Positions 51,194-64,000 of a stretch of DNA of 64,000 bases are shown in pieces. The position numbers and the translations under genes were made by a program. The notes beneath the pieces are model-generated. The model ran no database searches. It was not told the origin of the DNA and saw nothing but the letters and a program-made list of their open reading frames with translations. Position 1 is the stretch's first letter; every line of letters begins with the position of its first letter. The DNA is from an uncultured Oscillospiraceae bacterium (GTDB lineage: Bacteria; Bacillota; Clostridia; Christensenellales; Aristaeellaceae): contig CAYOYK010000007.1 in assembly GCA_964408185.1 (NCBI GenBank), positions 4,232-68,231 of the forward strand, read 5' to 3'.

Positions 51194-51931
51194 ATGCAAG
51201 CGATGATTTTGGCCGCGGGGCTTGGCAAGCGCCTGCGTCCGCTCACCGATACCATGCCCAAGGCGCTGGTGCCGGTAAACGGCGTTCCGCTTCTTTTACA
51301 CGCGTTGGACTGCCTGAGCTGCTTTGAGATCAGCGACGTGATTCTGGTGGTCGGCCACCGCAAGGGCGATATCATCGGCGTGGTGGGTCACGAGTATAAC
51401 GGCATGAAGATCACCTACGTCGAGAATCCCGATTACGAGACCACCAACAACGTCTACTCGCTCTATCTGGCGCGGGATTATGTCAAGGATGACTGCCTGA
51501 TGCTGGAATGCGATATCTACTATACGACCGATTTGATTGAGCGTCTGCTATCCGGCAAGGCGGCCTGCAACATTCTGGTCAGCCCCTTCCGCGCCGAAAC
51601 CATGAACGGCTCGGTCGTTTTTTGCGATGCGGGGGATCGCGTCACGTCCCTCGTCATCAAGCGCGATCAGGGCGAGGATTTCGACTATTCGCACGCGCTC
51701 AAGACGGTCAATGCCTACCTGTTTAAAGACGGCTGGATGCGGCGCGTGCTGATGCCCAACCTGGAGACCTATGTGCGCACGCAGGGGGTCAACAGCTACT
51801 ATGAGCTGGTGATCGGCGGGCTGATTTACTATGGCAACAGCGATATACAGGTCGTCCGCATCCCGGATGACCGCTGGTACGAGATCGACGATCAGGACGA
51901 CCTGCGCAAGGCCGAGGAGGCCAAGCTGTGA
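51194..51931 (+). CDS. sugar/alcohol-phosphate nucleotidyltransferase (LicC/ispD-like NTP-transferase)
   Basis: 245-aa tail of ORF 50183-51931. N-terminus MILAAGLGKRLRPLTDTMPKALVPV. Confidence 0.85.
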   Translation: MQAMILAAGLGKRLRPLTDTMPKALVPVNGVPLLLHALDCLSCFEISDVILVVGHRKGDIIGVVGHEYNGMKITYVENPDYETTNNVYSLYLARDYVKDDCLMLECDIYYTTDLIERLLSGKAACNILVSPFRAETMNGSVVFCDAGDRVTSLVIKRDQGEDFDYSHALKTVNAYLFKDGWMRRVLMPNLETYVRTQGVNSYYELVIGGLIYYGNSDIQVVRIPDDRWYEIDDQDDLRKAEEAKL

Positions 51932-52659
51932 AGGCTGGGGCCATCGGGGTGCTGGGCGGAATGGGCTCGCTGGCGACCGCTGATTTCTTCACGCGGCTGG
52001 TGCGCGCCTTCCCTGCCGAAAAGGAGTGGGATCGCCCCCGCATCGTGGTGGATAACGCCTGCCAGATGCCCAGCCGCGTTCGGGCCATCCTGTACGGCGA
52101 GCGCCGCGAGGAGCTGATAGCCGCGCTGGCGGGCGGCCTCGCGGGCCTTGCCGCGCAAGGCTGTACGGATATCGTGCTTGCGTGCAACACCAGCCATGTC
52201 TTTCTGCCGGAGGTTCTCCCGCTTGCCGAGGAGCAGTCCGGCGGCCGTCCGTTCCGGGTCTGGCACATCCTTGAGCTGCTGGGCGAGGAGCTGCGCCGGG
52301 ACGGCGTTCGCCGCGTCAGCCTGATCGCCACGGAGGGCACCATCCTGTCGGGGATTTATCCGCGGGTGCTGGCTAAATACGGCGTGCAGGTGGATTGCGA
52401 GGGCGAGGCCGCCTTTGCCGAGCTTCGTTTCCTCATCGAGGCCGTCAAGTGCGACCGAATCGACGCGGAGGCGCTGCGGCGGTTCTGCGCGCTGCTGGAG
52501 CGCCAGCCCTGCGCCGACGTGGTGCTGGGCTGCACGGAGTTTCCCATTCTGCGCGGCGCGCTGGGCGACCGCGAGGCGACGCTGACCAAGCGTCTGCGCG
52601 ATCCGCTGGCCTCCGCTCTCGACGCGCTGAAGGCCGAATATCTGGGGGCGAACGCATGA
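51928..52659 (+). CDS. Asp/Glu/hydantoin-racemase family protein (aspartate racemase-like)
   Basis: GTG at 51928 overlaps the previous stop. GVLGGMGSLATADFF, and two catalytic-Cys blocks, ACNTSH and LGCTEFP. Confidence 0.85.
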   Translation: MKAGAIGVLGGMGSLATADFFTRLVRAFPAEKEWDRPRIVVDNACQMPSRVRAILYGERREELIAALAGGLAGLAAQGCTDIVLACNTSHVFLPEVLPLAEEQSGGRPFRVWHILELLGEELRRDGVRRVSLIATEGTILSGIYPRVLAKYGVQVDCEGEAAFAELRFLIEAVKCDRIDAEALRRFCALLERQPCADVVLGCTEFPILRGALGDREATLTKRLRDPLASALDALKAEYLGANA

Positions 52660-53840
52660 GCTTGCTCGGCGCGGTCAAGGCGCCGCTTCGCGCCGCGCGC
52701 AACGCCTACTATCGGCGCTGGCCCGCGCTGCGCCGCGCCCTGACCGGACGGCGGCGTATATTGCTGTACGTCAACAACCAAGCCATGTCGTCGCATATCT
52801 GGCGGTACTATGAGTGCGTGCAGGATGAGCGCGGCCTCGATTTTTCCTTGTACGAGCCGGAGGGCGCGCTGACCAACGCCGCCGCCGACGTGTTTGAGCA
52901 AAACGTCGCCGCGAGCCGCATCCGCCGCTGCAAGCATCCGGGCTTCGTCGCGTGGGATCTGATCGTCTGCGCGGATATGCGAACCCCCGCCAGCTTTACG
53001 CGGGAGATGACGCCCCTGCTGTACGTCAACCATGGCCTGCACATCGTCTCCATGGATGGCGGCGCGCGCCTGTACTGCTATGGGGACAGCGCGCTGGATG
53101 AGCGCGGGCAGCCCAAGTTTACGCGCATGCTGGAAAGCAACCGGCACATCGTCCGGGAAATGGCGACATTCGATCCTCGCTTCGCGCCGCGCATCGTGTG
53201 GTCGGGCTTCAAGTTTGCGGGCAGCATCGCGGACGCGGTCGCCGCCCGCGCGGAAATCCGCCGCCGGATGGGCGTGCCGGAAAACGTCTGCCTCGTAGGC
53301 TTTTTTGGCACGTGGCGGGAGCACAGCCTGTTCCACGCGCTGGGCCCCGGCTTGTTTGACGCGTGCGAGGCGCTGCGGCCGGAGGGCTATCAATTCCTGT
53401 TTTCCATCCATCCCAAGGAGTATGGTCGGTACGCCCCGGATATCGAGCCGATGGGCGAGTTGGTGGAGAGCCAGCGCGCGCGCGGCATGCTGGTGCGCAG
53501 CCCCGGCGAGCCCTTCGAGCCCGCCATGGCCGCCTGCGATATCGTCGTGTCCGATTACAGCTCCATGGCCGAGAGCGCGATCATCGCCGGGCGAAAGCTG
53601 GTCTTCAGCCCGTACCCGGACGGCATGGTTTGGAAGCGCAGCCTCACCGCCGAGGCGCGGCGCGCGCTGCCCACGCTGCCGGACGTATCGCGCCTGCGCG
53701 AGGTGCTGGACGCGGTACGCGCCGCGCCGCTTGATCCGTTCATCGCAGACGCTCGGCTTCAGCTCGTCCGCGCCGATCACGACCAAGTCGTCCGCGACGT
53801 GACGCGCGAGCTGCTGCAAAAGGAGGCGCGCCGTGCCTGA
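52656..53840 (+). CDS. CDP-glycerol glycerophosphotransferase-like (TagB/TagF family) protein
   Basis: Internal ATG at 52656 (ATGA overlap). The C-terminal block CDIVVSDYSSMAESAI resembles the TagF-family ITDYSS motif. The assignment is tentative. Confidence 0.55.
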   Translation: MSLLGAVKAPLRAARNAYYRRWPALRRALTGRRRILLYVNNQAMSSHIWRYYECVQDERGLDFSLYEPEGALTNAAADVFEQNVAASRIRRCKHPGFVAWDLIVCADMRTPASFTREMTPLLYVNHGLHIVSMDGGARLYCYGDSALDERGQPKFTRMLESNRHIVREMATFDPRFAPRIVWSGFKFAGSIADAVAARAEIRRRMGVPENVCLVGFFGTWREHSLFHALGPGLFDACEALRPEGYQFLFSIHPKEYGRYAPDIEPMGELVESQRARGMLVRSPGEPFEPAMAACDIVVSDYSSMAESAIIAGRKLVFSPYPDGMVWKRSLTAEARRALPTLPDVSRLREVLDAVRAAPLDPFIADARLQLVRADHDQVVRDVTRELLQKEARRA

Positions 53841-55434
53841 CGCTTCCCGCACGCGCAACAGCGCGCGCAACGCCACCATGAGCCTGCTCACGCAGGCGCT
53901 CGGCCTGCTGCTCTCCTTTGCGGGGCGGCTTGTATTCGTGCGCACGCTGGGCGAGGAATACTTGGGCATCTCCGGCTGGTTCAGCAACATCCTCAGCATC
54001 CTCAGCATCAGCGAGCTTGGCATCGGCACGGCCATTGTGGTCAGCCTGTACAAGCCGCTTGCCTCCGGCAACGAGGGCCGCATCCGCGCGAGCATCCGGC
54101 TGCTCCGACGCGCGTACTACTGTGTGGGCGCGGCGGTGCTGACGCTTGGCCTGTGCCTGCTGCCCTTCTTGGACGTGCTGGTCAACAAGCAGACCGAGCT
54201 GGTCGATCTGCGCGTCTGCTATTTGCTGTTCCTGAGCCAATCCGTGTTCAGCTATCTGTTTTGCGGCTACAAGACGGCCATCTTCACCGCCGATCAGCGC
54301 CAGAGCCGCGTCAACCTGATCCAGTGCGTCGTCAACGCGGCGGTCACGCTCTGCCAGATCGTGACGCTGCTGCTGTGGCGCAACTACTACCTGTACGTCG
54401 TCTATTTGGTGGCGGGAGCCGCGCTCAAAAACCTGCTCGTCGCCGCCAGCGCCAACCGGGAGTATCCCTACCTGCGCCATGTCACGCGCCTGCGCCCGGA
54501 GGAGGACGATAGGGCGTTGCTGCCCACGGCGGAGCGAAAGGGCATCTTTCACAACCTGTTTGGGCTAAGCCTCTACCGCTTGAGCGGCACGGTGCTCAAC
54601 GCCACGGACAACTTGGTGCTGGGCAAATGGATCGGCTTTGCGATCATAGGCGTGTACAGCAACTATCTGCTGGTCATTACCGCGCTGACCACCATGTTCC
54701 AGCTCGTGTTCCAGAGCTTTACGGCCAGCGTGGGCAACCTCAACGTCACGGAATCCTCGGAGCGCAAGGCGTTTGTGTTCCGCTGCCTGAACCAGCTGGA
54801 CGGCTGGCTGTACGGCTTTGCGGCGGTTTGCCTTTTGGTGCTCATCGATCCGTTTATTACGCTGGTTTTTGGCCCCGAATGGGTCTTTGCCGACGCGTGG
54901 GTAACGCCGATCATCGCGCTCAACTTCCTGACCAGCGGCCTGCTGGAAACCACCATCATGTACAAGGACGCGTGCGGGCTGTTCTGGCAGGGCCGCTTTC
55001 GGCCTGTGTTCTCCGCAGGGCTGAACATCGTGCTGTCCATCTGGTGGGTGGGGCCGTGGGGGATCGCGGGCGTGCTGGCCGCCACCATCGTCAGTCGGCT
55101 GCTCACCACATGGTGGTTTGACCCGTGGATGGTGCATCATTACGCGCTGAAAACAAGCTGCAAGGGGTACTTCCTGCGCACGCTCGCCGTTGTGGGCGTA
55201 TTTGCCGCGCTGGGCGCGGGCCTGACGCTTCTGCGCAACGCCCTCTTCCCGATGGATTCCCTTCCCGGCTTTTTGGCAATGATGTTGCTTTGCGCCACGA
55301 TCCCCAACGCGGCGTTCTACCTGATGTATCGGCGCACGCCGGAGTTTGCCTACACGCTGCGCACGGCCAAGGGACTGCTGGGCCGCGTGCTGCATAAGGC
55401 CAAGCGTCCGGACGAAGCCGACCAAGACGCCTGA
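53833..55434 (+). CDS. polysaccharide/teichoic-acid flippase (Wzx/MOP superfamily)
   Basis: 533 aa, about 14 TM. The N-terminus (ARNATMSLLTQALGLLLSF..R..FVRTLG.EYLG) is typical of polysaccharide biosynthesis exporters. It overlaps the previous gene by 8 nt. Confidence 0.8.
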   Translation: MPDASRTRNSARNATMSLLTQALGLLLSFAGRLVFVRTLGEEYLGISGWFSNILSILSISELGIGTAIVVSLYKPLASGNEGRIRASIRLLRRAYYCVGAAVLTLGLCLLPFLDVLVNKQTELVDLRVCYLLFLSQSVFSYLFCGYKTAIFTADQRQSRVNLIQCVVNAAVTLCQIVTLLLWRNYYLYVVYLVAGAALKNLLVAASANREYPYLRHVTRLRPEEDDRALLPTAERKGIFHNLFGLSLYRLSGTVLNATDNLVLGKWIGFAIIGVYSNYLLVITALTTMFQLVFQSFTASVGNLNVTESSERKAFVFRCLNQLDGWLYGFAAVCLLVLIDPFITLVFGPEWVFADAWVTPIIALNFLTSGLLETTIMYKDACGLFWQGRFRPVFSAGLNIVLSIWWVGPWGIAGVLAATIVSRLLTTWWFDPWMVHHYALKTSCKGYFLRTLAVVGVFAALGAGLTLLRNALFPMDSLPGFLAMMLLCATIPNAAFYLMYRRTPEFAYTLRTAKGLLGRVLHKAKRPDEADQDA

Positions 55435-55445
55435 AACCGACAAAA

Positions 55446-55475
55446 AGCCCTCCGGCGTGTCCGGAGGGCTTTTTT
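55446..55475. terminator. bidirectional intrinsic terminator
   Basis: Stem AGCCCTCCGG / CCGGAGGGCT, 5-nt loop. A-tract on the 5' side and TTTTT on the 3' side. It lies between convergent genes. Confidence 0.75.
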
Positions 55476-55510
55476 GTCAGCGCGGCGCTTGCGTGCCTGC
55501 GACGCTCCTG

Positions 55511-56041
55511 TCAGCGCGGCGTTTGTATGCCGCGGGCGGCTCTTCTTGTCAGCTTGACCAGCGGCCCGCCCAGCAGCAGCGCCAGCACGAAGTTGCCCGC
55601 GCAATGCACCAGATCAAACGGAATGCCGCTGATAAAGTAGCTTGCCGCCAGCCCCGGCCCGCCGACAAACAGGTAGGGGATCGCGCACAGCAGCCCAAAC
55701 AGCAGCCCAAACGCGCCTGATATCACCGCCCAGAGAACCGGGCTGTCCAGCGCGCGCAGCGCGTACACAACGACGCAAAGGACGGCCCACACATACAGGT
55801 AGTTGATCGTCCAAAGGGACAGCCCGTACAGCAGCACCTCCAGCAGCACAAACACATAGGCGATCAGCAGCGCCTTGAGGCCGAACACGCGGGTAAAGAC
55901 CATCAGCAGCAGACTGACAGGCTCAATGTTGGGAAGCTGTGCCATGGCGACCTGCAGCGCGAAGGTCAGCGCGGCCAGCAGCGCAAAGAGCACCAGCTCG
56001 TAGGTAGTCAAAACCGGGCGACGTCTGGGCCGGCTGGTCAT
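55511..56041 (-). CDS. ECF-transporter S-component-like membrane protein (CbrT-like by context)
   Basis: 176-aa tail of ORF 55511-56617, 5-6 TM. It starts 6 nt after the DUF4430-like gene and lies downstream of a cobalamin riboswitch. Confidence 0.55.
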   Translation of the reverse strand: MTSRPRRRPVLTTYELVLFALLAALTFALQVAMAQLPNIEPVSLLLMVFTRVFGLKALLIAYVFVLLEVLLYGLSLWTINYLYVWAVLCVVVYALRALDSPVLWAVISGAFGLLFGLLCAIPYLFVGGPGLAASYFISGIPFDLVHCAGNFVLALLLGGPLVKLTRRAARGIQTPR

Positions 56042-56046
56042 GGCGC

Positions 56047-56598
56047 TCACCAGCCCGTCGTCAGAACAAGCTCGTAATGCTCGCCGTCCGCAATGGGCGT
56101 GGCGTCCGCGCCCGTGGTGAGCATCTCCCCGCTCCGGGTGACGCACCACCATTGCTGCAACGCGGTATCGGCGGTAACGCCGTTCACCGTTTGGATAAAC
56201 AGGCCGTAGGTCGAGCTTTCCCCCTGCGCAAGCCCTGTGTTTACCAGCAGCGCCCCCAGCGTCTCCTCGTCGGTGCGGTACACAAACTCCTTCGGGTCGC
56301 TCTGGCCGTCGTCCACGCTGATGGTCACGGCCTTGCTCCCGACCTGCGTCTGCGGCTTCAAAGCCAGCCACAGCCCTCCAAAGGCGAACACCAGCGCGCA
56401 CAGGATGCACAGCGCCGCGATGACGGCTCGCTTGCCGCCCGATTGACGCTTGGGGGCCTCGGCCTCCGCCGCTTTGTTTTCCGCCGCCGCGTCGGTTACG
56501 ATGGGCTCGTCCGCCTGCTTGCGTTCCGCAGGGTTGTTCTCCGTGGTGCTGTTCTCCGCAGGGTTGTTTTCCGTGTGCTTGTTCTCCATGCTCATCAT
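56047..56598 (-). CDS. DUF4430-like (transcobalamin-like) membrane-anchored binding protein
   Basis: 183 aa. Low-complexity N-terminus, one TM, then a beta-rich domain ending WWCVTRSGEML..GADATPIADGEHYELV, which is typical of DUF4430. Confidence 0.65.
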   Translation of the reverse strand: MMSMENKHTENNPAENSTTENNPAERKQADEPIVTDAAAENKAAEAEAPKRQSGGKRAVIAALCILCALVFAFGGLWLALKPQTQVGSKAVTISVDDGQSDPKEFVYRTDEETLGALLVNTGLAQGESSTYGLFIQTVNGVTADTALQQWWCVTRSGEMLTTGADATPIADGEHYELVLTTGW

Positions 56599-57027: not shown

Positions 57028-59169
57028 ATGATCCGACGCGGTGCGCATACCGGCAAACGCCTGACGCTTGCGCTTTTGCTGTGCCTTTGTGCGGCGCTGC
57101 TTTGCGGCTGCGCCGTTTGGGAGCTGGAGGGGGAGACGACCTCGTCCGTGCCCAACCTGTCCCTGCTCCGGCCGGGCGCGTATATCGATCAGGACGACGG
57201 CCGAGGGGACGTCGCGTCCGAGGGCGCGTACTACCGCGTGGATCTGTGGCTGGACGCGTCCCAGAACATGGGCGGCGTAAACCCAAGCGACGTATCCATT
57301 TACCCGCACCGCAACCGCAACTACCGGGAGGGCGGCTTCCACTATCAGGATGAGAAGCAAAAGCCGTGGTATGAGTCCGTGCTGATGGATTTGACGATGG
57401 CGACGGGCGATAAGCAGGTGCGCGTCCTCCGCTATGGCAACGAGGTGCTTGCGGATGATTATCTGCTGGGCGCGGGCCTTGCGGATCCGGGCGCAACGGA
57501 GGAAAAGCTGGCCTCGCTCCGCCGGGACTTGATGACCTACGCGCTTTCGCCCACGGCAGACGATTTTGCCGCGATGTCCTGCGAGGATATGTCCGTCAGC
57601 TTTTACGGGCTGGGCACGCCGATGCTCAATCAAATGGCCCGCTTTGCCGATACCGACGGCGCCGCGCTGGAAAACCCCGGCATGGTGGGGGCCATGTCCG
57701 ACGCGCTGGACGCGCAGATATCGGCGATAGCGGCGGACGAGGGTCTTCGGCGCGGCTTTTTGATCGATCACGACAGCGATGCGTATTCGTGCCCGCTGAT
57801 GTACGCCCTTCAGCAGATGGACTTTGGCCGCCTCAACATCGTGGTGGCGGACACGGCCTCTATCCGCCGCCTGAGCGGCATGGACGATCAGGGGCAAGGG
57901 ATCGCTTACTACGAGGAGCTCTTCCGCGACGCGGGGCTGATGACCGATCGCGGCCTGTCCGTGGGGCTGATGGCGCTCCGGCTGGACTACATGGGGCAGA
58001 TCAGCTCCATCTGCTCGGCGGATCTGGCCGAGCCGCTCGTTTGGGGAAAGCCGCAGCCGGATAATAGCAGCAATACCATTCAGCTTGGCGTGATGCCGCG
58101 GGAGTTGCTGGTGCTTGTCATCGGCCCGCAGGCGGACGTGGAGGCCTACATGGGCGACCTGAGCCATCGGCTTGATACGGACGAGAGTCTGCAGGGCGAG
58201 CGCGGCCCGGAGGAGAAAAAGCGCCTCGTCTACGCCCGCGACGGCCAGACGCTGTACAGCGAGCGCTTCACATTCGATTATGAAACGGCGATTCTTACCC
58301 CGCCTACGCTGGGCTACTATACGCAAAACACCCCGGACGTCGTGCTGGCCGCCTCCGACGAAAGCGAGTGGACGCGCCGCAACGGCTTGGATACCGTGGT
58401 GCTTGCGCCCGACGCGGACGGGAAGCAGGCCGACCGCACGCTGACCGTCACGCTGCCCATCCGCGCCGAGAGCTACATGCGCCTCGCGGAGCTGACCGCC
58501 GCGCAAAACGGCGATATTACCGTGCGCAGCTCGCTTACGCTGGTCGACAGCCTAGCCAACACGCCCGATAGCGCTTACCAGCCGTCGGACGACGAGCAAT
58601 GCGTCACCCTGCGGGATACCGTCTACGTCTATCGCCATGAGGAGCTGCCCTTTGAGGATTCGCCGTCCAAGTCGCCCTTTACGCTGGTCGGCCTATCGGT
58701 GGACGAGCTTGAAACGCAGCTGACGCTTACCGTTCGGGTGGACGGCGACAAGCTGGCCGAGGGCTACTATCGCCTGCAGCTCGCGGTGGATGTGCCCGGC
58801 GTGGTGACGCGCTGGCCGTCCATTCCGTGGATTGACGGCTATCTGAACAGCGATGCGGGCCTGACGGACGACGGGAGCCTCAACGCCGATGTGACCGCGG
58901 ACGACGTATATCGCTGGGAGACCTTTGCGGAGGCTGTCGCGCGCACCGAGCGCCAGCGCACCTATATTGTGGAACAGTTCCGGCACGCGTGGGGCAAGTA
59001 TAACGAGCGCCCCTACGACGGCATGGCCATCCCGGACTGCCCGCCCGTAGAGAAGCTCCTGCAGGCGCGCGATCTCATCAATCAGCTTCGCGCGGCCGCT
59101 ACGCAGGAGACGCAGCCCTATGTGCGCTTTACGCTGGATGTGTTCGCGGATAACCGCACCGAGCCGTAA
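57028..59169 (+). CDS. large extracytoplasmic lipoprotein, possible degenerate vWA-like N-terminal domain (function unknown)
   Basis: 713 aa. RBS GAGGTG. The signal peptide ends in LLCGC (lipobox-like). The strand YRVDLWLDASQNMGG resembles a vWA beta1/MIDAS segment with the last Ser replaced. I recognise no other motif. Confidence 0.7.
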   Translation: MIRRGAHTGKRLTLALLLCLCAALLCGCAVWELEGETTSSVPNLSLLRPGAYIDQDDGRGDVASEGAYYRVDLWLDASQNMGGVNPSDVSIYPHRNRNYREGGFHYQDEKQKPWYESVLMDLTMATGDKQVRVLRYGNEVLADDYLLGAGLADPGATEEKLASLRRDLMTYALSPTADDFAAMSCEDMSVSFYGLGTPMLNQMARFADTDGAALENPGMVGAMSDALDAQISAIAADEGLRRGFLIDHDSDAYSCPLMYALQQMDFGRLNIVVADTASIRRLSGMDDQGQGIAYYEELFRDAGLMTDRGLSVGLMALRLDYMGQISSICSADLAEPLVWGKPQPDNSSNTIQLGVMPRELLVLVIGPQADVEAYMGDLSHRLDTDESLQGERGPEEKKRLVYARDGQTLYSERFTFDYETAILTPPTLGYYTQNTPDVVLAASDESEWTRRNGLDTVVLAPDADGKQADRTLTVTLPIRAESYMRLAELTAAQNGDITVRSSLTLVDSLANTPDSAYQPSDDEQCVTLRDTVYVYRHEELPFEDSPSKSPFTLVGLSVDELETQLTLTVRVDGDKLAEGYYRLQLAVDVPGVVTRWPSIPWIDGYLNSDAGLTDDGSLNADVTADDVYRWETFAEAVARTERQRTYIVEQFRHAWGKYNERPYDGMAIPDCPPVEKLLQARDLINQLRAAATQETQPYVRFTLDVFADNRTEP

Positions 59170-59187: not shown

Positions 59188-59841
59188 TTGAGCCAGATTT
59201 CCATCAACCGTTCGTCCGACCTGCCGCAAAGGCCGAGGATCAAGTATCACAGCCGCCTGAAGGTGCTGCTGTGCTATCTGCTGTGCTGGGGGACGGCCGC
59301 GCTGCTTGTTTACGCGGCCCTGCGGTGGGTGTTTCCCTATAAGCTGGTGGGCACGTCGCCGGATATCCTGAGCAACCTGACGCAGGCGTTTCCTTTCCTG
59401 CGCAAGCCGCTGGCAGAGGCTGCCGCGACGCTGCAAACCGGGGCGCAGGCAAGCGCGGCGGCGATCGCGCGCGCCATGGCCCTGCGGGATCTGTACTGGC
59501 GGCAGTTTGTCGGCGGCTGTGTCGGCGTGGCCATGACGGTGAGCCTGCTCATCCAACTGGGCTGGCGCATGTCGTTTGTGCGCGTTCGTCACCCCAGCCG
59601 CGCCGCGCGCCGGGCGGTACGCTCGTACCATCTGCTCATGACCGTGATCGTGCTTTTGAACGCGGGCGTTGCGCTGTTTTTGTTCCTGACGGGCGTGCGG
59701 TTCATTGCGGACAGGAATGTCTGGGATTACGCGGTGTACTTTGGCGGCTTTGCGCTCACCGTCGCCGCCTCGGCCCTGTGCTTCCGGCTGGCCGCGCCGC
59801 CCACGCTGTCGGGATATCGGGCGTTCTTCAGGCGGCTGTAA
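59188..59841 (+). CDS. 4-TM membrane protein (function unknown)
   Basis: 217 aa. TTG start 6 nt after AAAGGAG and 18 nt after the lipoprotein stop. Four hydrophobic segments. Confidence 0.6.
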   Translation: MSQISINRSSDLPQRPRIKYHSRLKVLLCYLLCWGTAALLVYAALRWVFPYKLVGTSPDILSNLTQAFPFLRKPLAEAAATLQTGAQASAAAIARAMALRDLYWRQFVGGCVGVAMTVSLLIQLGWRMSFVRVRHPSRAARRAVRSYHLLMTVIVLLNAGVALFLFLTGVRFIADRNVWDYAVYFGGFALTVAASALCFRLAAPPTLSGYRAFFRRL

Positions 59842-59867
59842 TCATCCATCAGAAAGGGGGCCGCGCC

Positions 59868-61970
59868 ATGGGCTGCTATGTGATCGCCGTCGGCGGCACG
59901 GGCAACAAGGTCATGGAGAGCATCGTGTACGGCGCTTGCGCCGATGCTTTTTATTCCATGGACGAGGAGGGCCGCCGCGTGCCCGTGCCGGAGATCCACC
60001 TGCTGGCGGTGGATGTGGACGCGGCCTGCGGCAACACCACGCGCGCGCGGCAGGCCTGCGAGCAGTACGAGGCCGTTCGCGCGGCGCTCCGACGTGCGGA
60101 GGCGGACGCGCAGGGCTTCCATACCCGCCTGATCGTGGATAAATGGAACATGAACCTCTCCCGCCGCGCCACCAGCGTGGAGCAGCAGGTTCGCAATCAC
60201 AAGAAGGATCAGCTCCTCGCGCGCACGCTCTTTAACAAGACCGAGGCGTCGCTGGAATACTCCGAGGGCTTTCGGGGGCATCCCGACCTCGGCATATTGT
60301 TCTTTTCCGAGCTGCTTAACGGCGTGGACGCCGCCGCGGCCGCCGGTCAGCCCGATGAAATGGCGGACTTTATGGCGCGCATCGAGCGGGATATGGAGCG
60401 CGGCGAGACAGCGTCCGTCGTGCTGTGCGGGTCGATTTTTGGCGGCACGGGCGCGAGCGGCATCCCGGCCATCTCGCAGTTCCTGCGCGAGCGCTTTCGT
60501 TCCTACGGGCCCAAGCTCGTGCTTGCCGCAACGCTGATGCTGCCCTACTACAAGGTGCCGCCCTCCGCGCAGAACGAGGAGCTGGAGATCGTCGTCAAGA
60601 GCTCTGCGTTCCTTGATAAAGCGCGCACCGCCCTTTCGTACTATGGCATGGAGGGCATGATCCGTCAGGACGAGAACGATCAGAACGGCGTGTATGACGC
60701 GATCTACCTCTTGGGCATGCCGCAGGAGGCCTTTGTGACCACGCGCCTGTACTCCACCGGCTCGCAAAGTCAGGAGAACGACGCGCATATTCTGGAGTGG
60801 CTGGCAATGCGCTGCGTGGCCCGGTTTTTCCGCACGGGCTTTCGCGGCGCGCAGAGCCATCAGATCGATTGCTACTACTACCAAATGCACGAGCGCGCGT
60901 TTTCGTGGGACAGCTTTGACGACGAGGCGGAGCTGTACCGCACGGGCTTTGGCGGCCTGATGAAGGCCGGGGCGACCTACGTGAGCGAGTGCTACCCCTA
61001 CCTGCGCGGTCGCATCAAGGGCGATGTGCGGGGCCGCCGCAATTTGGTCAACTACGATACCGCGTATTTCAGCTGCCTGCGCAGCCTCACCGTCGCGCAG
61101 CGCGCCACCCTCGAAAAGAGCATGGATTCCCTCTACCGCCTGCTCGTGTTCTATTGCAACTGGATGTGCCAGATCCTGCGGACGCTGCCGCCCAACCTGC
61201 GCAAGGTCAGCCCGGCCGAGCAGCGCCGGCAGGAGGCTGTGGAGAACTACGCACGCCTTTGCGAGCAAGCCGCCGCCTGCGCTCTGGCCGATCCGGCCGA
61301 TCGTCTGGCCGCCGCGCAGGGCGAGCTGGTTCTGCGCGCGCTGGAAAGCAAGCAGGAGGCCTACGCGCGCGAGCTGGGCGGCCTTGCCCAGCTGGAGATC
61401 CTTCAGAACGCGCGCACGCGGCTGGAGGGCCGGGCAGTCCAGCAGCGCATGGCCATCGAGGCGCTGCAACGCCGGATCGAGCAGGGCTTGGACGAGGACG
61501 GTGGCGCGCTGGACGAGCAGTCGCTTGTAATGGAAAACCGCCGCTTGGACGGCATGCGGGACGCGCTTGCCCGCGTGGCCAAGCAGGCCGAGCGCGTCGC
61601 CGAGGATGTCCGCGCCGCCGTTACGGACGATATTGCCGCCCGCTATCCCGCGCCCAAGCAGGAGAAAGCCGCGCTGCTGCCGGAGAACGAGCTGTTTGAC
61701 GCGCGGCTCGCATCCCAGCTTTACGAGTTGCTGCGCATCAGCGGCCAGCCGCGCGAGGAGCGCAACCTGCGCCGCTACGAGCTGCTGTGCGATTCCATCC
61801 AGGCGGGCATGGGCCGGCTGATTGTCCACCGCGTGCCGGATACGGTCGCAATGTCGCAAATTGTCGCCGGGCTGGGCGGCGGGCGCTATCAGGGCGCGGA
61901 CCCGCAGGCGGCGGTCGGCACATTCTTCGCGCAGCTTTTGGGCGCGGTGCTGGAGGAGGATTCCCTATGA
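59868..61970 (+). CDS. divergent tubulin/FtsZ-superfamily-like GTPase with C-terminal coiled coil
   Basis: Internal ATG at 59868 (RBS AGAAAGGGGG) of ORF 59778-61970. YVIAVGGTGNKV at the N-terminus. GFRGHPDLGILFF. VVLCGSIFGGTGASGIP (nt 60441-60461 encode GGTGASG; compare the tubulin/FtsZ signature GGGTG[ST]G). About 150 aa of Ala/Arg/Glu/Gln/Leu-rich helical sequence near the C-terminus. Confidence 0.7.
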   Translation: MGCYVIAVGGTGNKVMESIVYGACADAFYSMDEEGRRVPVPEIHLLAVDVDAACGNTTRARQACEQYEAVRAALRRAEADAQGFHTRLIVDKWNMNLSRRATSVEQQVRNHKKDQLLARTLFNKTEASLEYSEGFRGHPDLGILFFSELLNGVDAAAAAGQPDEMADFMARIERDMERGETASVVLCGSIFGGTGASGIPAISQFLRERFRSYGPKLVLAATLMLPYYKVPPSAQNEELEIVVKSSAFLDKARTALSYYGMEGMIRQDENDQNGVYDAIYLLGMPQEAFVTTRLYSTGSQSQENDAHILEWLAMRCVARFFRTGFRGAQSHQIDCYYYQMHERAFSWDSFDDEAELYRTGFGGLMKAGATYVSECYPYLRGRIKGDVRGRRNLVNYDTAYFSCLRSLTVAQRATLEKSMDSLYRLLVFYCNWMCQILRTLPPNLRKVSPAEQRRQEAVENYARLCEQAAACALADPADRLAAAQGELVLRALESKQEAYARELGGLAQLEILQNARTRLEGRAVQQRMAIEALQRRIEQGLDEDGGALDEQSLVMENRRLDGMRDALARVAKQAERVAEDVRAAVTDDIAARYPAPKQEKAALLPENELFDARLASQLYELLRISGQPREERNLRRYELLCDSIQAGMGRLIVHRVPDTVAMSQIVAGLGGGRYQGADPQAAVGTFFAQLLGAVLEEDSL

Positions 61971-64000
61971 AACGAAAGGCAAACCGCCGCGCGCCGGGCG
62001 TAAACAGCCCGCAGGGCAAGCAGGAGCTGGATCGGCAGACCTCCTACCAAACGCTGCTGCCCGCCATGGGCGAGGGCTTCCATCTGGGCTATCACACGCT
62101 GCCCGGCATTGTGAGCGATCAGAACCAAAAGCCCCACGAATGGCTGGAAAACGTGGCGCGCTTTATGCTTACGCAGGGCGAGGAGGTCGGCTATTCCATC
62201 CCGGACGTGCTGGCCGGAGAGCAGCAGATGAAGCGCCTGATTCGCTTGCCCTACGAGGACGCCATGCGCCATCAGGAAATGCTGGATTGGCGCGGCATTC
62301 TGGCTGTGCTTCTGCTTTGGGACAGCTGGGAGCAGGACGAAACTTGGCCGATCCTCTCCTACGAGGATTTTCTTACGCCGGAGAGCATGACCACTGCCAT
62401 GGCCTTTCAGCGCGCGGTGGCGATGTCGCTCACCCCGGAGCGCGCGGCGGACGGCCTCAAGGTGTTCTCGCTGGTCAGCCAGCGCGAGCAGGTGCCCGAT
62501 AAACGCCCGCTTTGCATGGCGTCGCGCAGCGTGGTCATCATGCCCGCCGCCAACCCCGGCGATTTGGACGATGTGCTGCCCGATCGCATCCGCTGGTATA
62601 ATCGCGCGCGCAAGCGCTTTGAGGATCCCTGCGATTTTTTGGAGGAGGAGGATCGCGCGCGGCTGGTGGCGCAGCTCCGGCTGCTTCAGCGCCTCAACGA
62701 GGAGGAGAGCTACCACAGCGCGATCTATGCCAAGGACGCGCCGCTCATCAGCCTGCTGGACCGTTTCATCGACGATCTGCTCGGCTTCCGCATGAGCTGG
62801 CGCGAGCGCATCGAGGGCGGAGACCCGCAGGCGGAGCGCGAGCTGCGCGGCCGCGTGCTGGCGGTTTACGGAGGCATGGCGGAGCGCGATGAGCGCGCCA
62901 TCGCCGCAATCGCCTGCGAGGAGCAGCTTTTGGACGCGCGGGAGCTATCCGCCAATCCGCTCATCGCCGCGCTGCTCACCCAGCCGCTGCCTGCCGACGG
63001 CGTGCTCACGGATACACGGCACACGGTGTACACCTATCAGGGCGCGCCCTTTGCGCGCTCCTCAGGCGCGTATTTGCTGGAGCCCGCCAACCATCCCGAT
63101 GAGGATCGCACGTTTGCGCTTGTGGAGCAGGAGGTAGCCGTCTTTCAGGGCTATTCCTGCGCGTGGAACCAGCGCACGGCCGCGCGCCTCAACGCGCTGG
63201 CGGCGGAGCTTGCCCCGCGCGTGGGCGCGAGCCATCGCGTATGCGACCTGCTGCGGCGCTGGAGTCGGGAGTTGGCCGCGTATCCGACCTCGTGCGACCA
63301 GCGCATCGAGCTGAGCTACCCGATCGAGGGCCCCACCGGGTCGCTGACGCGCCTAATGGAGGACACGCTGGGGTTGCCCTGCGCGGAGGACGCTTTTTCG
63401 GACTGTCTGCTGACGGTTGACTGCCCGGAAGCCCCGCCGTTTGAGGATCCCTCGCTTAGCACGCACTGCCGCGTGGAGGGGATGGACGATGGATGCTACG
63501 CCGTGCCGCCGCTTTCCGCGGCCATGGCGCAATGGCTGCTGACGGAATGCGATCAGGGCGGCGAGAACGCCGCGTGGCTTGAGCCGGATTCCTTCCGTTT
63601 TACGCGCGTTGATACGGAGCGAGGCCCCGCGATCCGCGCCGAGTTTGAGGTCAAGCGTCAAACGCCGGCCGAGGACGCGCTGATCACCAACACGGTGGTT
63701 TTCCGCCGCGAGTATCTGCTGCCCGCGCCGGACGCGCGTCTCACGGCGGCCGGCATGGTCATGCGCGTCTCCGGGGAGGCGCTGCCTTACGTGGTCTCGT
63801 GGCCCAACGTGCATATTGCGCCGGAGCTTTGGCGGCGCTACTACGTGTACGCGCATCGGCCGCAGAATCTCGACGTGTGGGTCTACCGCGACGGCGCGTG
63901 GCAGCAGGGCCTGTATCGCCGCGTGTCCGAGCTGGACGAGGCCCTCGGCACGGAAAGAACGCGCGTGTGGCGCACCGCCGTCACCGAGACGTATCCGGCG
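61967..64000 (+). CDS. large hypothetical cytoplasmic protein (3' end outside window)
   Basis: This gene is not in the ORF track because it has no stop in the window. I translated from ATG 61967 (ATGA overlap with the previous stop) and found 678 codons open to base 64000, with coding-like composition (MKRKANRRAPGVNSPQGKQELDRQTSYQTLL...). No TM and no motif I recognise. Confidence 0.75.
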   Translation, partial: MKRKANRRAPGVNSPQGKQELDRQTSYQTLLPAMGEGFHLGYHTLPGIVSDQNQKPHEWLENVARFMLTQGEEVGYSIPDVLAGEQQMKRLIRLPYEDAMRHQEMLDWRGILAVLLLWDSWEQDETWPILSYEDFLTPESMTTAMAFQRAVAMSLTPERAADGLKVFSLVSQREQVPDKRPLCMASRSVVIMPAANPGDLDDVLPDRIRWYNRARKRFEDPCDFLEEEDRARLVAQLRLLQRLNEEESYHSAIYAKDAPLISLLDRFIDDLLGFRMSWRERIEGGDPQAERELRGRVLAVYGGMAERDERAIAAIACEEQLLDARELSANPLIAALLTQPLPADGVLTDTRHTVYTYQGAPFARSSGAYLLEPANHPDEDRTFALVEQEVAVFQGYSCAWNQRTAARLNALAAELAPRVGASHRVCDLLRRWSRELAAYPTSCDQRIELSYPIEGPTGSLTRLMEDTLGLPCAEDAFSDCLLTVDCPEAPPFEDPSLSTHCRVEGMDDGCYAVPPLSAAMAQWLLTECDQGGENAAWLEPDSFRFTRVDTERGPAIRAEFEVKRQTPAEDALITNTVVFRREYLLPAPDARLTAAGMVMRVSGEALPYVVSWPNVHIAPELWRRYYVYAHRPQNLDVWVYRDGAWQQGLYRRVSELDEALGTERTRVWRTAVTETYPA

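Follow-up and report, generated by a model that had tools for sequence, protein, structure and literature searches.

To our knowledge, in all well-studied proteins of the tubulin superfamily, the hydrolysis of guanosine triphosphate (GTP) is driven by an acidic residue of the T7 loop that is supplied by the neighboring subunit, thereby coupling hydrolysis to polymerization. TubZ, PhuZ, and BtubAB retain the C-terminal activation domain together with this catalytic T7 loop, and they form filaments. FtsZl1, described by Makarova and Koonin (2010, PMC2875224), has neither an alignable T6-H7/T7 region nor a known C-terminal domain; it carries an extended coiled coil and an alpha-helical C-terminal domain, its operons encode vWA, GTPase, OmpA, and membrane proteins, and its authors proposed either a novel mechanism of filament formation or none. 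FtsZl1-type tubulins were later assigned by Kaur, Burroughs, Iyer, and Aravind (2020, PMC7159879) to the DO-GTPase/GAP1-N2 conflict systems, in which the themes of tubulin and HSP70 show no overlap. In the literature, we found no experimental work on FtsZl1 or Tubulin_2 proteins. Here, we analyzed a 64,000-nucleotide stretch of contig CAYOYK010000007.1 from an uncultured Oscillospiraceae bacterium (the whole stretch is called the window below), in which the third gene of a four-gene cassette (gene 3) encodes a tubulin-like protein. The gene 3 protein belongs to the tubulin/FtsZ superfamily, in which it is highly divergent; its closest families are Tubulin_2 and FtsZl1, and it represents a new subfamily of a known, experimentally unstudied kind.

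To collect the family, residues 1-450 were used as the query of an exhaustive phmmer search, which gave 1472 matches at E ≤ 1e-3, including 811 at E ≤ 1e-10. Conservation was then read from 131 representatives of 50%-identity clusters, which are 19-35% identical to the gene 3 protein. A first-pass annotation, made from the letters of the DNA alone, had pointed to three glycine motifs, and its observation is confirmed as real. VIAVGGTGNKV lies at residues 5-15 as described, GGTGASG occupies exactly the residues (192-198) and nucleotides that had been given, and GFRGHPDLG is at 134-142, a shift of one residue from the proposed position of about 133-141. These motifs correspond to the T1, T4, and T3 loops, respectively. 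In T1, G9, G10, and G12 are conserved in 98%, 95%, and 98% of the representatives; in T3, which is the EGFRGHPDLG block, G134, F135, and G137 in 99%, 91%, and 90%; and in T4, which is the GSIFGGTGASGIP block, G192, G193, and G195 in 96% each, T194 in 94%, A196 in 96%, Ala or Ser at 197 in 93%, and G198 in 80%. Since the T1-T6 residues are conserved at 80-99% overall in such distant representatives, the three glycine motifs are not a product of chance. The other loops were recognized as well: the T2 block VDVD..GN with D49 (89%) and D51 (94%), the T5 block LMLPY[YF] with P226 (99%), and a G298..Q302-x-N304..H307 block that makes up T6 and the start of H7. The T4 loop, or G-box, reads G-S-x-F-G-G-T-G-A-[AS]-G family-wide, and FGGTGASG thus differs from the canonical GGGTG[ST]G in that the first Gly is replaced by Phe and the last Gly is moved by one residue.

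In Pfam, the gene 3 protein itself matched Tubulin_2 over residues 6-306 (E 3.4e-4; 20.4 bits, below the gathering threshold of 27 bits) and had a sub-threshold match to Tubulin (PF00091) at residues 166-211, the T4 region (E 1.1e-4). Among the close homologues, Tubulin_2 was matched by 25 of 25 at E ≤ 0.01 (best 1.8e-8) and PF00091 by 13 of 25 (best 9.8e-7). Tubulin_2 was also matched by 27 of 61 distant representatives at E ≤ 4e-6, with no other family matched. An AlphaFold model built on the alignment had a mean predicted local distance difference test score (pLDDT) of 79 and a predicted template modeling score of 0.77. When this model was compared with the PDB by Foldseek, the best 50 matches were tubulins only (gamma, alpha, beta, and Asgard), with probabilities of 0.85-1.0 over about 285 columns. 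The tubulin/FtsZ-type identity with variant signature loops, as claimed in the first-pass annotation, is thus borne out by the Pfam matches of the close homologues and by the structural matches. Searches of PDB sequences with the single sequence and with a profile gave only spurious coiled-coil or GFP-like matches, NCBIfam had no match for any of the four cassette proteins, and no significant match for the gene 3 protein was found among the BFVD viral structures.

The order of the loops was analyzed by hhalign against a profile of nine diverse FtsZ sequences taken from plasmid-collection records. T3-T5 were in register (P 0.017), and a permissive run placed T1-T7 all in order (P 0.078); against the single E. 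coli FtsZ, the T4 loop alone was aligned. This loop order would agree with the tubulin/FtsZ assignment, although it is suggestive, not significant, and no proof alone. The glycine loops could in principle belong to a Rossmann-type GxGxxG oxidoreductase or to a P-loop nucleoside triphosphatase (NTPase) instead of a tubulin fold, given that an N-terminal beta-strand, a Gly-rich loop, and a helix are generic to Rossmann-like folds and that the Foldseek E-values to tubulin are modest. The first-pass annotation had itself named these two folds as the alternative. However, neither appears: no such family was found in the Pfam, NCBIfam, or PDB searches, Tubulin_2 and Tubulin are the only Pfam families matched, the structural best 50 are all tubulins, five more tubulin-type loops stand in the correct order, and the gene 3 protein has no Walker A motif. 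The oxidoreductase or P-loop reading is therefore effectively refuted, and we regard it as highly improbable.

We also verified the start of gene 3. The version in the list of open reading frames, with a GTG start at 59778 and 30 additional codons, was rejected: it overlaps the end of gene 2 (59841), and the extension is not conserved. ATG 59868, which the first-pass annotation had assumed, is the start in all homologues and is preceded by the Shine-Dalgarno sequence AAAGGGGG at a distance of 7 nucleotides. Because the GTG version overlaps the upstream gene, ATG 59868 was taken as the true start.

Next, we analyzed the C-terminal half of the protein. The first-pass annotation saw no similarity to the FtsZ/tubulin C-terminal domain past about residue 330, and this held: the model is wholly helical from residue 347 to the end, and no Pfam match to FtsZ_C or Tubulin_C was found in the gene 3 protein and 24 homologues, indicating that this domain is absent. 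In its place stands an all-alpha domain, in which W432 is conserved in 88% of the family-wide representatives. The coiled coil is an optional insert inside this domain. Close homologues fall into two length classes of about 700 and about 530 residues, which differ by exactly residues ~455-610, and distant relatives from Selenomonadaceae, Cyanobacteria, Acidobacteriota, and Chlorobiaceae, with 485-520 residues, have no insert. When the N-terminal domains were arranged in a neighbor-joining tree, the long forms were mixed with the short ones, so the insert was gained or lost several times. Both length classes conserve the final 90 residues, and L690 is nearly invariant across phyla.

The insert has a composition of 20.5% Ala, 10.9% Arg, 12.2% Glu, and 8.3% Gln. 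A crude heptad score of its a and d positions was reached by 9 of 500 shuffled sequences when the mean was used and by 1 of 500 when the maximum was used, and AlphaFold placed four long helices at 449-473, 479-503, 505-539, and 550-586 with pLDDT of about 90. The helical, heptad-like character of residues 455-610 is therefore moderately supported. The first-pass annotation described an Ala/Arg/Glu/Gln-rich, heptad-like stretch at about 480-640, and its example peptide RLEGRAVQQRMAIEALQRRIEQGLDE is present at residues 518-543. While the composition and the shuffles support that description, the stretch is internal, with bounds of 455-610, rather than a tail. Nor can the coiled coil be the replacement for the C-terminal domain, as had been claimed, since short forms dispense with it and a helical end of 90 residues follows it. 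Separately, we observed that the codons of the acidic gene 3 C-terminus (LEEE..) contain the gene 4 Shine-Dalgarno sequence GGAGGAGG; because that site lies inside the same codons, the conservation of the acidic tail may partly be a constraint at the nucleotide level.

The absence of a T7-type loop, also claimed in the first-pass annotation, was only partly upheld. No canonical loop and no conserved acid were found, but a T7-like element exists by topology: SWDSFDD (60903-60923, plus strand), in which W347-D-S-F-D351-D opens a long helix, separated by a 23-residue loop from the helix equated with H7 (307-323). In the 131 representatives, W347 is kept in 91% and W+3 carries a hydrophobic side chain in 94%, whereas the acidic residue at W+2 (Asp) occurs in only 53%. 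The gene 3 protein has Ser349 at this position, and almost its entire clade likewise has Ser; in distant members, the sequence is W-x-D-[FLI]-P. In the permissive hhalign run, W-x-D-[FLI] falls on F210-A-D212 of FtsZ, in an alignment that is not significant. The earlier interpretation is thus largely right with two corrections, namely, that the coiled coil is an insert and not a tail and that a degenerate T7-like element is present. Its suggestion that GTPase activation would proceed by another mechanism or through a partner is a reasonable hypothesis.

These features bear on whether the protein could be a classical cytomotive filament of the FtsZ/TubZ/PhuZ type that polymerizes head-to-tail, its GTP hydrolysis being activated by the W347 element of the next subunit as a genuine T7, with the actin-fold partner encoded by gene 4 serving only as an FtsA-like membrane tether. 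The W-x-[D/S]-[FLI] start of the post-H7 helix, its permissive alignment on FtsZ, the conservation of W347 and of the hydrophobic W+3, and a gene adjacency that recalls ftsA-ftsZ would fit such a filament. Against it, the W+2 acid is present in about half of the representatives and is Ser in the gene 3 protein and its clade, the C-terminal beta-domain, which makes half of the FtsZ/tubulin longitudinal interface, is missing, the hhalign alignment is not significant, and there is no TubR-like or centromere element. We consider a classical filament unlikely. A role in TubZ-type plasmid segregation was rejected, with neither TubR nor a centromere found and a chromosomal location. With TubZ, PhuZ, and BtubAB, the gene 3 protein shares the superfamily and the GTP-binding fold; unlike them, it has no significant match to the BFVD phage tubulins or to any PDB sequence.

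Gene 4 was then analyzed as the candidate partner. It leaves the window after residue 678 of 1241, and the full gene was read in locus L001 (12054-15779), whose contig is identical to the window. The domain of interest lies beyond the end of the window and carries the motifs DFGS712, DIGGSTTD930, and AGNGG1081; DFGS (phosphate-1), DIGGxTTD (phosphate-2), and AGNGG (adenosine) do not vary among 23 gene 4 homologues. Pfam gave no match for the gene 4 protein or its close homologues. One distant homologue matched MreB_Mbl with 29.7 bits (gathering threshold 27), and distant homologues also matched FtsA, EutA, Ppx-GppA, and Hydantoinase_A, all of the actin-ATPase clan. An AlphaFold model of the 1185-residue homologue P0146 (pLDDT 83) gave 476 PDB matches at E ≤ 1e-3 by Foldseek; Hsp70 nucleotide-binding domains were the best (8.7e-7, template modeling score about 0.51), and MreB and actin were among the matches. 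The motifs, the Pfam matches, and this model together indicate that the C-terminal half of the gene 4 protein is an apparently active actin/Hsp70-fold (ASKHA) ATPase domain.

The coupling of genes 3 and 4 proposed in the first-pass annotation was well supported. The four-nucleotide ATGA overlap of gene 3 and gene 4 was found in 36 of 51 loci, and in 19 of 24 distant loci, the tubulin-like gene is directly followed downstream by a gene homologous to the C-terminal half of gene 4; these distant pairs come from Selenomonadaceae, Cyanobacteria, Acidobacteriota, and relatives of Christensenellales. Gene 4 is accordingly a fitting candidate for a partner, and that its protein activates the GTPase would be pure inference. 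With FtsZ-FtsA, the pair shares, by analogy, a tubulin-superfamily GTPase gene beside an actin-superfamily ATPase gene, with products that would act at the membrane, and the conserved extreme C-terminal helix of the gene 3 protein could be a docking peptide. In contrast to FtsZ-FtsA, the gene order is reversed, the partner has 1241 residues, 650 of them in an N-terminal extension, both the FtsZ C-terminal domain and a conserved T7 acid are lacking, and the cassette lies outside any dcw cluster. The analogy is functional only, as the sequence similarity of the gene 3 protein to FtsZ is marginal.

When one genome per species was scanned, 443 loci emerged. The 59 close ones, which belong to Candidatus Limiplasma and other Christensenellales-like Clostridia, all keep the gene order 1-2-3-4, and the neighbors vary by genome (purine operon, diaminopimelate (DAP) epimerase, glycosyltransferases); the four-gene cassette travels as a unit. 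Pfam had no family for genes 1, 2, and 4. A gene 1 homologue with 27-45% identity is upstream in all 59 close loci. The gene 1 protein has a single N-terminal hydrophobic segment, and lipoboxes are kept in the homologues. Its motif VDLWLDASQNMGG at residues 71-83 (57238-57276) resembles the metal ion-dependent adhesion site (MIDAS) of vWA domains, and in distant loci, the VDxYxDAT.SMQG and hhhhTD motifs of a 430-495-residue lipoprotein encoded upstream align to gene 1, so that gene 1 and these counterparts have DxSxS-like and hhhhTD motifs in common. By its appearance, the motif together with the hhhhTD strand looks like a degenerate vWA MIDAS; Pfam and PDB profile searches with two alignments did not confirm the vWA fold of gene 1. 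Gene 2 has a homologue in all close loci (28-50% identity), and distant loci carry a protein of 156-171 residues with 3-5 transmembrane segments at its position. The coordinates of all these features are collected in Table 1.

Table 1. Features of the cassette in the window, with the evidence on which each rests.
Feature	Position	Strand	Basis
Gene 1, 713-aa predicted lipoprotein	57028..59169	+	Signal peptide; Cys lipobox LLCGC
Gene 2, 217-aa membrane protein, four predicted transmembrane segments	59188..59841	+	Hydropathy scan
Shine-Dalgarno AAAGGGGG of gene 3	59853..59860	+	Read from sequence; 7 nt before ATG 59868
Gene 3, 700-aa tubulin-like protein	59868..61970	+	ATG start; ORF (open reading frame) translation, Pfam, alignment, model
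GTP-binding domain, tubulin/FtsZ-type, residues 1-345	59868..60902	+	Pfam, Foldseek, hhalign, conservation
T1 loop GGTGNK	59880-59912	+	Collinear with FtsZ in hhalign
T2 loop VDVDAACGN	60009-60044	+	Collinear with FtsZ in hhalign
T3 loop GFRGHPDLG	60267-60293	+	Collinear with FtsZ in hhalign
T4 loop GGTGASG	60441-60461	+	Collinear with FtsZ in hhalign
T5 loop LMLPYY	60534-60551	+	Collinear with FtsZ in hhalign
T6/H7 STGSQSQENDAH	60753-60788	+	Collinear with FtsZ in hhalign
All-alpha domain, first part, residues 346-454	60903..61229	+	AlphaFold helices 347-383, 409-438
Ala/Arg/Glu/Gln-rich helical insert, coiled-coil-like, residues 455-610	61230..61697	+	Length classes, composition, heptads, model
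Helical C-terminal segment, residues 611-700, end F..LL.AV.EE	61698..61967	+	Aligns in long and short forms
Shine-Dalgarno GGAGGAGG of gene 4	61952..61959	+	Read from sequence; within gene 3 acidic C-terminus codons
Gene 4, residues 1-678 of 1241, leaves window	61967..64000	+	ATG overlaps gene 3 stop (ATGA)

In L001, the proteins of 713, 217, 700, and 1241 residues are followed in the operon by purE/C/F/M/N. The surroundings were also recorded: upstream (51928-56598) lie an Asp/Glu racemase, a 533-residue multi-pass flippase-like protein, and a DUF4430 protein on the minus strand, and downstream (L001 16104-21111) is the purE-purC-purF-purM-purN-IMP cyclohydrolase operon. No integrases and no mobile-element or defense genes were seen among the neighbors of the cassette. 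Two further observations concern other genomes. The metagenome-assembled genome (MAG) JAZKYW01 (Candidatus Limiplasma sp.) has two divergent cassettes on contigs L038 and L042, whose tubulin-like genes share 57% and 43% identity with gene 3; these could be paralogous systems or bin contamination. In the Acidobacteriota loci L081 (16022-18636) and L073 (15620-18131), the cassette is followed by two extra genes, one MotA/ExbB-like (603-637 residues, with a long C-terminal extension) and the other OmpA/MotB-like (about 233 residues).

The whole was then compared with FtsZl1 and Tubulin_2 (PF13809). Shared features are a GTP-binding, FtsZ-like domain at the N-terminus with a GGTG-type T1 and a G-box, the lack of a confidently alignable T6-H7/T7 and of the FtsZ/tubulin C-terminal domain, the succession of FtsZ-like N-terminus, coiled coil, and alpha-helical C-terminal domain, which the gene 3 protein shows, and operons with membrane-associated and secreted proteins. 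The set of traits noted in the first-pass annotation is thus essentially a rediscovery, in a relative, of the FtsZl1 features described in 2010 (PMC2875224). However, differences were also observed. The coiled coil is optional here and missing in most of the wider family, the string GGTGAS is nowhere in the 2010 alignments (PMC2875224), and cyanobacterial FtsZl1 has about 1100 residues compared with a core of about 500 in the gene 3 family. Furthermore, the cassette has no TRAFAC GTPase, kinase, or confirmed vWA gene, and its actin/Hsp70-fold neighbor is constant, whereas no actin-like protein is among the associated families of PMC2875224. Some homologues are labeled "tubulin-like doman-containing protein" at NCBI, and we found no description of a tubulin-like/actin-like cassette in the literature.

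From this anatomy and gene context, we propose that the gene 3 protein is a GTP-regulated subunit of a membrane-associated two-NTPase machine, a reading to which we give a probability of about 0.5. The tubulin-like protein would bind GTP and would act as a nucleotide-regulated assembly or switch subunit in a stoichiometric complex with its actin-fold partner. This complex would sit at the cytoplasmic face of the membrane, anchored via the gene 2 protein and linked to the lipoprotein (gene 1) on the outside, and it may be functionally analogous to FtsZ-FtsA while distinct from the cell-division machinery. Since the family does not conserve the T7 acid that is usually supplied in trans, GTP hydrolysis, if any, would require a non-canonical interface or the partner. 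A housekeeping role is favored by the neighbors (purine, DAP, and polysaccharide genes), among which neither integrases nor defense genes were seen, and by the absence of PADLOC matches.

Several observations weigh against this proposal. The Foldseek E-values to tubulins are 0.009-0.03 with a poor root-mean-square deviation, and hhalign against FtsZ is not significant alone (P 0.017-0.08). In the model, pLDDT falls under 50 in loops 114-137, 227-245, and 272-304 (about 60207-60779 of the window); these low-confidence loops are the family's most conserved, around T3, T5, and T6, and the model suggests that they may become ordered only upon nucleotide or partner binding. No gene 4 indel of note co-varies with the coiled-coil insert of gene 3. 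The family is rare and patchy, with its 443 loci drawn from about 185,000 species representatives. Finally, FtsZl1-type relatives have been assigned to conflict systems (PMC7159879), and the acidobacterial MotA/ExbB-like and OmpA-like genes recall ZorA/ZorB of the Zorya defense systems.

The last two points lead to a serious rival, namely, that the cassette serves in conflict or anti-phage defense, where NTP-dependent assemblies of the GTPase and the ATPase would act as threshold switches or effectors, as was proposed for FtsZl1-type tubulins and HSP70 in the DO-GTPase/GAP1 systems. Disturbances of the envelope would be detected by the lipoprotein and membrane protein. Divergent tubulins with coiled-coil or helical C-termini, Hsp70-fold proteins, and membrane-proximal multi-gene organization are common to both; FtsZl1-type tubulins with coiled-coil tails were placed together with vWA proteins in GTPase-centric conflict systems (PMC7159879), and the patchy phyletic distribution, the two divergent cassettes in one MAG (L038 and L042), and the Zorya-like acidobacterial extras point the same way. 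By contrast, the cassette has no DO-GTPase, GAP1, or FNIII-repeat proteins, and the tubulin and Hsp70/actin folds are here an obligate adjacent pair. With no Walker A motif in genes 1, 3, and 4, no Pfam family for genes 1, 2, and 4, and housekeeping genes bounding the cassette, direct membership of the DO-GTPase/GAP1 systems was rejected. Further evidence counts against a defense role more generally: neither a nuclease, protease, or TIR domain nor any other effector domain turned up, PADLOC-DB 2.0 gave no match at E ≤ 1 for any of the four proteins, the flanks are housekeeping genes and not a defense island, and the four genes are conserved across the Limiplasma/Christensenellales clade with no variable effector module. 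We therefore judge a defense role to be possible, though rather improbable, and a membrane-associated two-NTPase machine remains the preferred reading.

The value added by this cassette lies in the conserved pairing of a tubulin-like protein with an actin/Hsp70-fold ATPase, together with a lipoprotein and a membrane protein, in several phyla. The family amounts to about 1,500 clusters at 50% identity. A tubulin fold that keeps its GTP pocket while its activating half is replaced would show either an alternative way of switching or a switch that does not polymerize, and the coupled actin/Hsp70-fold neighbor offers a concrete candidate for the activator that is missing. The pair may also be a second case in nature of a tubulin-fold and an actin-fold protein cooperating at the membrane. 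The hosts of the cassette are Clostridia from gut and digester that have not been cultured; since genetically tractable cyanobacteria carry homologous cassettes, direct testing is possible. Tentatively, and with less confidence than the mechanism above, the cassette could be an ancient, undescribed envelope machine: a second FtsZ/FtsA-like duo that arose independently of cell division and consists of a tubulin-fold GTPase and an actin-fold ATPase as obligate partners. Either the giant actin/Hsp70-fold partner or the helical domain would then activate the GTPase in place of the lost T7 loop and C-terminal domain, which do so in all studied tubulins, and the pair would be tied to the envelope by the lipoprotein and membrane protein.

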